A stretch of DNA of 64,000 nucleotides from Gammaproteobacteria bacterium (lineage in GTDB: Bacteria > Pseudomonadota > Gammaproteobacteria > Eutrophobiales > Eutrophobiaceae), in NCBI GenBank assembly GCA_965243205.1, contig CBDEUK010000001.1:171385-235384 (forward strand), read 5' to 3'. The position numbers were made by a program, and so were the translations under genes. Numbering within the stretch: the first letter of the stretch is position 1; every line of letters begins with the position of its first letter. Under the pieces are notes generated by a model. That model was not told the DNA's origin. It made no database searches and worked only from the letters and a program-made list of their open reading frames with translations. Below, piece by piece: positions 35,469-37,809 of this stretch.

Positions 35469-36518
35469 ATGGATAAGAAATTCCAAATCTTTATTAGCTC
35501 TACATACGAAGATCTAAAGGATGAGAGAGACCAAGCTATTAAAGCCGTTCTCGAGATGGGCCACATACCTGTTGGGATGGAAATGTTCAGCGCAGCTGAT
35601 GAAGAACAATGGCAGTTAATTTCCAGGCAGATTAAAGAAACTGATTATTATATCGTAATTATCGGCCACCGCTACGGCTCCGAGACTGATGAAGGAATCA
35701 GCTACACTGAAAAGGAATATGACTACGCTGTAACTTTGGGCGTTCCTACTTTGGGTTTTATTATTGACGATGAGGCTTCGTGGCCTAAAAAGTTCATCGA
35801 CGGCTCTCAGAAAAAAAAGAGAAAACTGGAACAGTTTAAAGAAAAGGTCAAAGGCAAACTGGTGCAATTCTGGTTTTCTAAAGATGATCTGCATGGAAAG
35901 GTTTCTATATCTTTAGTTAAAGCAATGAATACAAACCCAAGAATTGGTTGGACCCGAGCAAGTGAAGCGATAGGAAACGAAGTCACAAAGGAGTTGACAC
36001 GTTTAAGCCATGAAAACTCTTCTTTACGGGAAGAACTACAAATTTTGAAAAATAAACAGGAAGAGCAGTCAGATGCCGCTCGAGAAGTCGTGAATATTAT
36101 GAGCGCTAATGTTCGAAATATTAGGTGCAGAGAGACATCTAGTTGGGATGATGCAGAATTCTACGACACAGATTTGCTAATAGTTTTTCTGTCAATTGCA
36201 CCAAATCTATTAAACGAAAACACGTCAGAAGAAATTGGTAAAAATATTGCGTTAAAACTCGTGGGTACTGGGTATTATAACTACTATCCAATTGGGAAAA
36301 ATATTGTCGAGTCACTCTTGGCGGACTTTGTTGCTCTAGATGTTATTGAGCCATCAAGTAAAAAGCATTCCGTTCATGATAAAGATAATTATTGGAGTCT
36401 TACTAAGTTAGGTAAACAAGTATTGCGGCGAGCTAGAAGGATTCAACTTGAAGAAGGGCTAAGTTCTCCCACGATTGATGATAACCATGAGGGAGAAAGA
36501 GAAAGTGACGAGAGCTAA
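35469..36518 (+). CDS. Stand-alone DUF4062 (TIR / nucleoside 2-deoxyribosyltransferase-like) domain protein with coiled-coil C-terminal region
   Basis: The N-terminus IFISSTYEDLKDERDQAIKAVLEMGHIPVGMEMF...YYIVIIGHRYGS...SYTEKEYDYAVTLGVPTLGFII matches the DUF4062 consensus. There is no Walker A motif and no other known domain. Confidence 0.7.
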   Translation: MDKKFQIFISSTYEDLKDERDQAIKAVLEMGHIPVGMEMFSAADEEQWQLISRQIKETDYYIVIIGHRYGSETDEGISYTEKEYDYAVTLGVPTLGFIIDDEASWPKKFIDGSQKKKRKLEQFKEKVKGKLVQFWFSKDDLHGKVSISLVKAMNTNPRIGWTRASEAIGNEVTKELTRLSHENSSLREELQILKNKQEEQSDAAREVVNIMSANVRNIRCRETSSWDDAEFYDTDLLIVFLSIAPNLLNENTSEEIGKNIALKLVGTGYYNYYPIGKNIVESLLADFVALDVIEPSSKKHSVHDKDNYWSLTKLGKQVLRRARRIQLEEGLSSPTIDDNHEGERESDES

Positions 36519-36576
36519 CAAGCGCATGCAGAATTGTGCTACTGATGCTAAGCGTTATGTTTATTAGGAGAATGTA

Positions 36577-36879
36577 ATGTGGGAATTTGTTACAGCAGTG
36601 ATAGTTGCAGCTTTAACAGGCTATATCACATTTCGGGTTCAAGAAGAACGATTAAAAAAAGAACTTAAAACAGAATTCATGGCTGAGAAAGTCGCTAAAG
36701 ATTTACTAAGTAATAAACAATGGGAACAACGATCATTTGAAACCATTCAAAAACGTTTGGGTGGTTTCAAAGAAGATGAGTTAAGAAAAATACTTGTTAG
36801 AGCAGGAGCGGTTCGTTTTGAAGGCGATAATGGAGAGGAACTTTGGGGGCTAATAAGTAGAAATGAATCCAAATTATAA
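36577..36879 (+). CDS. Small single-pass membrane protein
   Basis: 100 aa with an N-terminal TM helix (EFVTAVIVAALTGYITF) and a charged helical remainder. An AGGAGA RBS lies 8 nt upstream and it starts 59 nt after the DUF4062 gene. Confidence 0.6.
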   Translation: MWEFVTAVIVAALTGYITFRVQEERLKKELKTEFMAEKVAKDLLSNKQWEQRSFETIQKRLGGFKEDELRKILVRAGAVRFEGDNGEELWGLISRNESKL

Positions 36880-36922
36880 TAAACATAACAAATCATTCCA
36901 GCCAACCGTTAGAAGGTATTCA

Positions 36923-37369
36923 ATGAAAATAATTTTCTTAATCTTAATTACTTTGTTTGTTTTTGGATGTAACAGCAAGACTGTGAAAGTGCTTCCCCAA
37001 AAGGATCTAAGTGGGTGTCATGGTCTAGGTATTGTCGCAGAAGACATCGCTCAAATTAGAGAGAAGAATGTTTCTCCAGAAAATACTTTTAATCAATATA
37101 TTATAGATAATCCAGATACACCTAAAAGTTTACATCCACATATAGCTGTAATAGCACAAACGGTTTTTGATTACCCGAATCTTAAACCCGAGACCTTTTT
37201 GCATACTTTCAATTATACATGCCTAGCTTCTCGAAACGGTGTGTCTATGAAAATTGCTCGCCCTTATCTACTTAAGAATAGCCAAAATTGTCAAGACAAT
37301 GTTCAACGTCCATCCATGGTAAGTGGTTGTATTCAACATGCATATAATGAATTATTACGAAGCAAATAA
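36923..37369 (+). CDS. Lipoprotein, unknown function
   Basis: MKIIFLILITLFVFGC lipobox. The longest ORF begins at 36863, overlapping the previous gene. Confidence 0.55.
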   Translation: MKIIFLILITLFVFGCNSKTVKVLPQKDLSGCHGLGIVAEDIAQIREKNVSPENTFNQYIIDNPDTPKSLHPHIAVIAQTVFDYPNLKPETFLHTFNYTCLASRNGVSMKIARPYLLKNSQNCQDNVQRPSMVSGCIQHAYNELLRSK

Positions 37370-37398
37370 TCTTCTAACGTTATAACCCTGAGTAAAAT

Positions 37399-37809
37399 AT
37401 GCCAAAAATTGAAACACAAGGACTATCACAAGACTATAAAACTGCTACAGGGTTATATGAGCCTATTGAACGTGGCGATGTTTCGAAGCCAGAATTACTT
37501 AAAATTCTTCAACATTTATCTACGTTATCCACACCCGTAGGGGAAGATGATTGCCCACCAACTGTCAACACTATCCTTTCTGGTGACATATATTCTTGTT
37601 TCTTTGGTGATTCCGGCTTCATTAGGTGCACTGATTCTCAACATGAAGAAATGACTGCAGATGAAGCACTAAAGATAATGTGTGGAGAGATGAGCTTAGA
37701 AGAATTTGATCTCTCAAAAGGTCATGAACCAAGGAAAAATAAAACAATTCTAATTTTATTTTTTGTTATTGCCGTAATTATTCTTGGTGTTATAACTTTT
37801 GTTTTATAA
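37399..37809 (+). CDS. Tail-anchored membrane protein, unknown function
   Basis: 136 aa with a soluble Cys-containing N-terminal domain and a C-terminal TM helix (ILILFFVIAVIILGVITFVL). Confidence 0.5.
   Translation: MPKIETQGLSQDYKTATGLYEPIERGDVSKPELLKILQHLSTLSTPVGEDDCPPTVNTILSGDIYSCFFGDSGFIRCTDSQHEEMTADEALKIMCGEMSLEEFDLSKGHEPRKNKTILILFFVIAVIILGVITFVL

Follow-up and report, generated by a model that had tools for sequence, protein, structure and literature searches.

Does a stand-alone DUF4062 gene that is closely followed by three small membrane-protein genes head a new multi-gene defence module, or does it act alone? The question is raised by a stretch of 64,000 nucleotides (nt) from gammaproteobacterial contig CBDEUK010000001.1 (hereafter the window), in which a first-pass annotation had described a 349-amino-acid (aa) protein with an N-terminal DUF4062 domain, and the genes for a 100-aa membrane protein, a lipoprotein and a tail-anchored 136-aa protein behind it, as a candidate TIR-type module with membrane effectors. 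Here we conclude, by sequence comparison, that the 349-aa protein is a full-length homologue of the Swarozyc anti-phage proteins whose sensor domain has diverged. It probably constitutes a self-contained, single-protein abortive-infection system that arrived as an integron cassette and now lies in a decayed cassette array, and the three genes that follow would have no part in its function.

The N-terminal domain of the protein is DUF4062 (Pfam PF13271, E=1.1e-32, residues 6-87, the whole 82-position model), and the Pfam scan returned this domain only, with no NTPase (NACHT/STAND), TROVE or WD40 domain; on both the domain and the lack of a fused NTPase, the first-pass annotation was correct. 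An AlphaFold2 model (mean predicted local distance difference test, pLDDT, of 79.8; ~90 at residues 205-330) has strands and helices alternating up to about residue 155, the last helix being H138-155, and contains a low-confidence block at residues 31-40 (pLDDT 59) at the position of the BB loop. A 44-residue helix (H170-213) follows, and then a beta-hairpin and a helical domain at residues 215-330. Foldseek, run on a library of PDB entries to April 2026 that did not hold the KpSwz structures described below, matched the N-terminal domain to the TIR domains of RPS4, SARM1, L6 and RUN1 (probability 1.0, target TM-score ~0.57), which bears out the TIR-like fold that had been proposed for it, and the C-terminal domain to PadR-type winged-helix proteins (target TM-score 0.55-0.64).

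This arrangement has a characterised counterpart. DUF4062 was recently described as a TIR-like NADase by Osinski et al. (bioRxiv 10.64898/2026.05.01.722283), in whose work Swarozyc denotes single proteins, made of DUF4062 and a C-terminal auxiliary (AUX) domain, that guard E. coli against BASEL phages. KpSwz, from K. pneumoniae, protects E. coli alone, requires both E97 and the AUX domain, causes NAD+ to drop upon infection and defends abortively; at rest it forms autoinhibited oligomers mediated by the stalk, and it is activated by the Bas14 portal, with the portal dodecamer as the trigger (10.64898/2026.05.01.722283). Among solved structures, KpSwz (PDB 10wc/11cq/11cv) is the only significant relative of the 349-aa protein, found with the single sequence (phmmer, E=1.4e-45) as well as with a 29-homologue profile (E=8e-62), whose positions 2-312 align collinearly with positions 3-309 of the 326-residue chain. 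By BLASTP, 39% of positions are identical across residues 2-198, an alignment running through the stalk. E83 of the window protein aligns with chain position 84 of 10wc_A, which is the A of FTEKAFDY. Since it was the E97A variant that was deposited, and since an offset of 13 between protein and chain numbering (KpSwz W238/Y239 being chain 225/226) puts E97A at this position, E83 is the predicted catalytic glutamate. E83 is invariant in the 29 homologues, and the motifs highlighted for Evangelion (F8, Q47-W48 and S-Y-T-E) are invariant in the family. The open reading frame (ORF) runs to its full length, and none of the 86 family-invariant residues, among them the catalytic glutamate, has been lost. 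The two proteins also have in common that each is a single polypeptide of ~330-350 aa with a DUF4062/TIR-like N-terminus, a helical stalk and an AUX domain of beta-hairpin and winged helix, the hairpin bearing an aromatic residue (Trp) at its tip, that neither has a conserved partner gene and that both have a patchy, horizontally transferred distribution. The predicted stalk and winged-helix architecture thus agrees with the published description of KpSwz, and the domain combination, which had been put forward as new, is that of Swarozyc and Evangelion as reported in preprints of May-June 2026. Since KpSwz has been validated experimentally, the homology makes a defence role very likely for the 349-aa protein, as had been suspected from its sequence. 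A PADLOC check of the protein and its neighbours, which the first-pass annotation had called for, gave no match (v2.0, 2023), nor did NCBIfam, both libraries being older than Swarozyc.

Where the window protein departs from KpSwz is chiefly in the predicted sensor. Its AUX domain has a wing insertion of about nine residues (KKHSVHDKD), and the phage trigger may differ; it also lacks the ~15-residue N-terminal extension of KpSwz, and its gene lies on an integron cassette whereas KpSwz lies in an enterobacterial defence island. A plasmid-borne homologue of Acinetobacter junii links the two proteins, sharing 51% identity with KpSwz over 261 aa and 37% with the window protein over 278 aa; where the C-terminus of the window protein has LLADFVALDVIEPSSKKHSVHDKDNYWSLT, that of the A. 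junii copy has LVIVQFRALKLIELSNKKHPPSDNNIYWTLT. With hhalign, the C-terminal profile of the window family aligned to that of KpSwz and the A. junii copy over 80 columns (probability 89%, E=2e-6) and paired the hairpin-tip residue W226 with KpSwz W238, a portal-anchoring residue. The A. junii gene, on plasmid pAJ_068-3 (locus L180, 4001-5065), falls between KpSwz and the window family in sequence and is broken by an in-frame stop; a reverse-transcriptase gene, an ISNCY transposase and an MspI-type restriction-modification system neighbour it.

Other systems that use DUF4062 or a TIR fold are more distant in architecture. Evangelion (Eva01-04), described by Ibarra-Chavez et al. (bioRxiv 10.64898/2026.06.25.731849), is a plasmid-borne, single-gene defence of DUF4062 and AUX. 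Eva01 of S. aureus pMW2 has in common with the window protein the DUF4062 core with its aromatic F8, the Q47-W48 of the Q/W/E motif and the acidic S-Y-T-E, and it too is carried on mobile elements and acts as a one-gene, NAD+-depleting abortive-infection system (10.64898/2026.06.25.731849). However, the 201 staphylococcal plasmid copies match residues 4-97 or 4-108 only (47% identity in the 4-97 alignments), and the AUX tail of Eva01 is short and unrelated, whereas the window protein is Swarozyc-like in architecture; in contrast to the portal-triggered Swarozyc, escape mutants of Eva01 lie in phage genes for recombination or replication. Avs/STAND NTPases and TEP1-like proteins likewise carry an N-terminal DUF4062 TIR-like effector domain, but the window protein has none of their NACHT/STAND NTPase, TROVE or WD40 domains and its sensor is a small winged helix. 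Thoeris and other systems that pair TIR with a membrane effector employ a TIR-fold, NAD+-processing domain in abortive infection, but in them several genes are indispensable, a separate effector being switched on by a signal that the TIR protein makes.

The family to which the window protein belongs is large and widely dispersed. More than 3,000 homologues were found in a search of 5.8 billion proteins, and the best 120 of them, 316-357 aa long with at least 92% query coverage and 57-74% identity, include proteins of Simiduia, Marinomonas, Pseudomonas, Serratia, Erwinia, Pectobacterium, Vibrio, Shewanella, Psychrobacter, Burkholderia, Methylophilus, Aromatoleum and a Thermodesulfobacteriota metagenome-assembled genome (MAG). 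A scan for loci, with one genome per species, yielded at least 499, of which the best 80 were used for context; they come from Pseudomonadota, Bacteroidota, Actinomycetota, Verrucomicrobiota, Planctomycetota, Bacillota, Cyanobacteria, Nitrospirota, Acidobacteriota and others, and are mostly full-length matches. High conservation combined with so patchy a distribution points to horizontal transfer. PADLOC models match immediate neighbours of homologues (OLD/AriA, DpdF, BrxH and a type II restriction endonuclease), and the contexts include a P2-prophage hotspot in Salmonella and an A. baumannii plasmid, where the gene lies beside toxin-antitoxin modules. PHROG 15411 matches the 349-aa protein over its full length (E=4e-79), and therefore prophage-borne copies would also exist. 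In the plasmid/prophage p20723-1 of Salmonella Newport (locus L178, 3995-5338), a 447-aa DUF4062 protein, 47% identical over 191 aa that span the TIR-like domain and stalk only, is encoded within a P2-like phage, where the virion-morphogenesis and baseplate V genes flank it at a site known as a defence hotspot; this protein, which is phrog_9489, has a different and longer C-terminal region.

If the genes behind the DUF4062 gene were its partners, the association should recur. We compared every island gene by tblastn with the 80 homologue loci (+/- 6 kb), and none of the 80 holds a relative of the 100-aa, 168-aa (lipoprotein) or 136-aa protein. When the 979 neighbouring ORFs were clustered, no family was present in more than seven loci and none at a fixed position, and the further contexts of close relatives were all different, with no conserved neighbour. 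Conversely, a DUF4062 gene is absent from all 88 loci of the 100-aa protein (342 kb in total). On these comparisons the three genes are unrelated neighbours without a functional link to the DUF4062 gene, which would act alone with no obligatory partner; the module with membrane effectors proposed in the first-pass annotation does not hold, and validated members of the family work as single genes. The 100-aa protein is itself very widespread and well conserved, with homologues in Ca. Thiodiazotropha (88% identical), Cycloclasticus (85%) and Streptomyces (~54%), belongs to no Pfam or PADLOC family and is predicted by AlphaFold2 and Foldseek to consist of a membrane-anchored helix and a small DsrD/Z-alpha-like winged helix. 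That the 100-aa protein might derive from the AUX domain, and serve as its decoy or regulator, was considered and rejected (probability of 0.4% in hhalign). In one Thiodiazotropha locus (L081), the homologue of the 100-aa gene (5001-5303) stands beside ThsB_TIR and TIR_2 cassettes; a recurring association with TIR proteins was rejected as well, there being no recurrence in the 88 loci and the case being confined to one organism, with attC sites in between. The family of the 136-aa protein is small, with only 41 clusters at E<=1e-3 in a set of 1.84 billion representatives, and the island proteins are all singletons when clustered at 90% identity.

What, then, brought these genes together? The same Thiodiazotropha locus offers an answer, for there the 100-aa homologue is part of a textbook integron, in which a tyrosine recombinase (Phage_int_SAM_4, Phage_integrase) is divergent from a series of small genes, all on one strand, with R''...R' hairpins between them (..CTTAAC...GTTAAGT and GTTAGCC). 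From 14 such sites we built an attC covariance model, and all 22 of its matches in the homologue loci at E<=1 fell on the gene strand. The DUF4062 gene has attC sites on both sides in a Nitrospirota locus (L047, where 3 of the 11 matches were among the sites used to build the model), in Cyanobium gracile (L035) and in Solimonas (L013), and on one side in Photobacterium rosenbergii (L015), in L009, in Aromatoleum evansii KB740 (L003) and in L089, the closest relative with context (71% identical). In A. evansii, an IntI that is 54% identical to that of L081 lies 1.2 kb upstream. Because attC sites flank DUF4062 genes in these seven loci and an integrase adjoins one of them, Swarozyc-like genes are carried recurrently as integron cassettes. 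Homologues of the 100-aa gene likewise occur in attC-bounded cassettes (L081-L084, L168, L133, L141 and others), among them those of Ca. Thiodiazotropha and others whose products are 85-88% identical to the 100-aa protein. The A. evansii locus (L003 636-3759) is a complete integron in a cultured strain, with a divergent IntI, two small ORFs, an attC site at 2653-2749 and the Swarozyc-like gene, and would make a convenient experimental system.

Phage-defence integron cassettes have been described by Darracq et al. (bioRxiv 10.1101/2024.07.02.601686) and Kieffer et al. (bioRxiv 10.1101/2024.07.02.601719). The gene studied here resembles those cassettes in being a compact single-gene defence, promoterless and attC-bounded, and in having homologues in bona fide arrays (L047, L035, L015, L013) and beside IntI (L003); it differs in that the attC sites of the window are truncated and non-folding and no integrase accompanies them. 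The integron papers that we found make no mention of DUF4062 or Swarozyc, and neither DUF4062 preprint (Osinski et al.; Ibarra-Chavez et al.) mentions integrons.

Relics of such a cassette organisation can be recognised in the window itself (Table 1). An identical GTTAGCT precedes the ATG of the DUF4062 gene by 29-33 nt in the window and in L089, and the similarity of the two loci begins there. The top match to the attC model in the 64 kb, both strands included, lies in the spacer that separates the DUF4062 gene from the 100-aa gene. The stop codon of the DUF4062 gene lies inside the R'' box of this relic (GCTAAC), the R''/L'' sequence reading CTAACAAgCGCAtGCA in the window and CTAACAAtCGCAgGCA in the attC site of L089; the R' box of the relic is GTTATGT at 36554-36560, and its 3' half aligns with the attC site that precedes the homologous L081 cassette. 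The 100-aa gene is preceded by GTTATGT and a ribosome-binding site (RBS), its L081 homologue by GTTAAGT and an RBS. It is these covariance-model matches and the homology to real attC sites that lead us to read the spacers as attC relics, and because of the relic and the shared cassette boundaries, the 58-nt gap, whose shortness had been taken as a sign of linkage within a module, would instead be a cassette junction.

Further relics lie downstream. The internal deletion in the one behind the 100-aa gene was read from its alignment to the L081, L083 and L084 cassettes, and a weaker match on the + strand also follows the stop of the 131-aa gene. A 29-nt direct repeat, ATAACAAnnnATnCCAGCCnnCCGTTAGA, occurs at 36885-36913 and again at 37806-37834, with 23 of 29 positions identical where no chance match is expected, and brackets the lipoprotein and 136-aa genes; we read its copies as two copies of one truncated attC (R''...R'). 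Between these two genes, at 37372-37385, TTCTAAC is directly followed by GTTATAA, which could be an R''-like box abutting an R'-like box, as expected for an attC site whose interior is deleted. When every intergenic spacer was folded, z-scores at the cassette junctions were near 0, and functional attC sites in the window were ruled out by this lack of folding, leaving relics only. A heuristic attC finder (R''/R' pairing and hairpin energy) returned nothing at 33.3-39.3 kb, but it proved insensitive on true arrays too. Taken as a whole, the segment from 35.4 to 39.1 kb is best read as an integrase-less fossil cassette array.

The same segment is accessory. RecR places the host as an uncultured gammaproteobacterium, with 69% identity to the best named relative and up to 81% to others. 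Two relatives, with RecR proteins 80% and 76% identical, keep the RND genes and/or the alpha/beta-hydrolase gene that lie upstream in the window; in one (L182), recR directly follows the hydrolase gene, and in the other (L181, RecR 80%), a homologue of the 131-aa gene is followed by genes for an OLD-family ATPase/nuclease, a DUF2130 protein and a methyltransferase. In neither is a DUF4062 gene, any of the three small genes, a DUF1801/GFA gene or the TonB-receptor gene present within 10 kb of recR. Because it is absent from both, the block, which starts at ~35.4 kb, is classed as accessory; this is the presence/absence variability that had been anticipated. The site 3' of the hydrolase is variable, is occupied by defence-type genes in two of these three genomes and, in this lineage, looks like a hotspot for defence. 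In L181 the OLD-family, DUF2130 and methyltransferase genes lie at 11377-14449, the first encoding an ATPase/TOPRIM nuclease of the type DUF2813/AAA_15/OLD-like_TOPRIM. No tRNA gene is present in the window, and base composition does not set the block apart.

By analogy with the experiments on KpSwz and Eva01, the system would operate as follows. The N-terminal TIR-like domain would be an NAD+ hydrolase with E83 as its catalytic glutamate, and the resting protein would be held inactive in stalk-mediated oligomers. The winged-helix AUX domain would bind a structure made by the phage, which for KpSwz is the portal dodecamer and which may be another one here, where AUX has diverged; binding would re-arrange the stalks, NAD+ would be split into ADP-ribose plus nicotinamide, and the loss of NAD+ would starve the infected cell and stop propagation of the phage. 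The gene itself would have entered the genome as an integron gene cassette, and the genes that follow would be separate cassettes, without a functional link to it and probably co-transcribed with it. Several observations weigh against this reading. The AUX domain is only ~24% identical to that of KpSwz, and an AUX-only hidden Markov model of the family does not match it significantly (6.3 bits, rank 19 of 5,001 shuffles); because of this divergence the KpSwz trigger is not transferable to the window protein. The strength of protection varied among the five homologues tested by Osinski et al. (10.64898/2026.05.01.722283), and Eva02 gave none (10.64898/2026.06.25.731849). As to the cassette, the relic behind the DUF4062 gene scores a weak 17.4 bits (E ~0.06, on a rough calibration), is shortened to ~48 nt and folds no better than shuffled sequences; tblastn with the L081 IntI detected no integrase in the 64-kb window; and as to expression, no promoter was recognised upstream of the DUF4062 gene.

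Some of these observations are what one would expect if the gene were an intact-looking but silent or decaying passenger of a fossil array that provides no defence to its host: the attC sites have decayed and do not fold, neither an integrase nor a Pc-type promoter is found in the window, and the frameshifted hydrolase gene next door attests to local gene decay or to assembly errors. We regard this as unlikely, however, as the reading frame has retained its full length and every family-invariant residue, has no internal stop, unlike the A. junii copy, and is followed by cassette genes that are intact as well. Less probable still is a non-immune function, as a nucleoside 2-deoxyribosyltransferase-like enzyme or as a winged-helix regulator with a ligand-binding N-terminal domain. 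DUF4062 is distantly related to enzymes of the nucleoside 2-deoxyribosyltransferase fold, one homologue (P0114) is annotated 'nucleoside 2-deoxyribosyltransferase', and the C-terminal domain resembles PadR-type regulators, but the closest characterised relative is an anti-phage NADase that has the catalytic residue and the whole architecture in common with the window protein; moreover, a patchy occurrence in many phyla, with identities of 40-74%, and carriage by integron cassettes, by plasmids and in a prophage hotspot, with defence neighbours, are typical of defence rather than of housekeeping genes. To the four-gene operon, in which the DUF4062 protein would be a TIR-like sensor/NADase and the three small membrane proteins or lipoproteins its effectors, we give the least credence of all. 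Its genes do share a strand, are spaced by only 58, 43 and 29 nt and have no promoter- or terminator-like site between them on the + strand, which makes co-transcription likely, and the 100-aa homologue of L081 has TIR cassettes as neighbours. Against this stand the empty counts in both directions (0/80 and 0/88) and the lack of any recurrent neighbour family, the restriction of the TIR neighbours to the array of one organism, with attC between them, the attC relic that, together with conserved cassette boundaries, parts the DUF4062 gene from the 100-aa gene, the sufficiency of KpSwz and Eva01 as single genes and the predicted structure of the 100-aa protein, a membrane-anchored winged helix that does not look like a pore former.

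The single-protein, cassette-borne system that we favour extends the Swarozyc/Evangelion NADase defences to an uncultured gammaproteobacterium and to an AUX subtype that is very widespread. It also ties that family to integrons, through attC-bounded copies in Nitrospirota, Cyanobium, Photobacterium, Solimonas and Aromatoleum, although this integron carriage is only a modestly new point that fits with known integron defence cassettes. It also cautions that tightly packed same-strand genes beside a defence gene do not amount to an operon when they are integron cassettes. More tentatively, the AUX subtype represented here (~345 aa, 40-74% identical, in at least 10 phyla) might be a distinct Swarozyc lineage that would spread mainly as an integron cassette and carry a sensor for a phage component other than the portal, in which case the window would illustrate the fixation of such a cassette in a chromosomal hotspot once its attC sites had decayed and with no integrase at hand; we entertain this as a possibility that is rather less probable than its opposite. 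Should the diverged AUX domain indeed sense another phage component, it would be a natural comparator for the re-targeting of one NADase scaffold. That the 100-aa membrane-anchored winged-helix cassette protein, which is 85-88% identical in genera far apart and has TIR cassettes beside it in two arrays, is an uncharacterised defence or anti-defence factor is a long shot.

Table 1. Features of the DUF4062 locus and its surroundings, in window coordinates
Feature	Position	Strand	Remarks
AcrB-type RND pump and membrane-fusion protein genes	29045-33403	-	
Palm_thioest-type alpha/beta-hydrolase gene, frameshifted	33500-34965		two overlapping ORFs, 33500-34042 (180 aa) and 33973-34965 (330 aa)
131-aa protein gene	34987-35382		conserved near RND genes in relatives
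GTTAGCT core site (R'-type, G|TTRRRY-like)	35434-35440	+	putative 5' cassette boundary
DUF4062 / Swarozyc-family gene	35469-36518	+	349 aa
TIR-like catalytic domain	35469-35948	+	aa 1-160
Putative BB loop GHIPVGMEMFSA	within 35469-35948	+	aa 31-42
Codon of Glu83	35715-35717	+	predicted catalytic glutamate (YTEKEYDY)
Long helix	35976-36107	+	aa 170-213; equivalent of KpSwz stalk
AUX domain, beta-hairpin then winged helix	36111-36458	+	aa 215-330; predicted sensor
Decayed attC relic, DUF4062/100-aa spacer	36511-36562	+	attC covariance model, L089/L081 homology
100-aa protein gene	36577-36879	+	N-terminal hydrophobic helix
Lipoprotein ORF, longest form	36863-37369	+	168 aa
attC relic 3' of 100-aa gene	36881-36913	+	R'' and L'' kept, ~33-nt internal deletion; 13.1 bits
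Lipoprotein gene, likely start ATG 36923	36923-37369	+	148 aa; lipobox LFVFGC
136-aa protein gene	37399-37809	+	C-terminal hydrophobic tail / membrane helix
Weak attC-like relic 3' of 136-aa gene	37802-37837	+	10.2 bits
11-bp perfect inverted repeat TTCTAGCTGAC...GTCAGCTAGAA	39099-39130	.	between convergent last DUF1801 and TonB-receptor genes
TonB-dependent receptor gene	39154-41307	-	

The layout of the locus largely agrees with the initial description. The ORFs for the 349-aa protein and the three small same-strand membrane proteins or lipoproteins lie where they had been placed, the 100-aa gene does have a strong RBS (AGGAG, 7 nt before its ATG), and the flanks are an RND pump and a TonB receptor. 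Two points need amendment. The second small gene does encode a lipobox lipoprotein, but its overlap with the 100-aa gene is probably not real, because the start that bears the lipobox, reading MKIIFLILITLFVFGC, is ATG 36923; with this as the most likely start, the 100-aa gene is not overlapped. Likewise, the island of unrelated small genes is accessory from ~35.4 kb onward only, the hydrolase and 131-aa genes being conserved beside the RND genes.

Expression of the block is probably joint. The hairpin between the convergent last DUF1801 and TonB-receptor genes (dG -10.6 kcal/mol, z = -4.1, equalled by none of 200 shuffles) is likely a bidirectional terminator that closes the gene block, and no terminator-like site was recognised on the + strand from 36518 to 39080. 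As this hairpin is the sole strong terminator-like one, the cassettes are probably co-transcribed. Co-transcription is normal in cassette arrays and says nothing on function.

The remainder of the accessory block (37843-39080) consists of a DUF1801 gene, a GFA (glutathione-dependent formaldehyde-activating-like) gene and a second DUF1801 gene, which are kinds of small gene common in cassette arrays. The intergenic gaps of 41 and 18 nt within it gave no attC-model match. In a metagenome locus (L142), a GFA homologue adjoins a homologue of the 100-aa-protein gene.

Upstream of the block, the frameshift in the hydrolase gene lies around 33975-34040, with a T5 run at ~33985. The hydrolases of the relatives are intact at 484-487 aa, are 76% and 68% identical and occupy the same place beside the RND genes; the broken copy in the window is either a pseudogene or an assembly error. 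Finally, the heuristic attC finder flagged repeated palindromes just 3' of two DUF4062 homologues, as 71-nt elements in a Limisphaerales MAG (L026 7170-7240 and 7526-7596) and as elements of ~50-150 nt in an uncultured bacterium (L025 7146-7294 and 8359-8408); they look like repetitive extragenic palindromic (REP) or miniature inverted-repeat transposable element (MITE) sequences and appear unrelated to attC sites.

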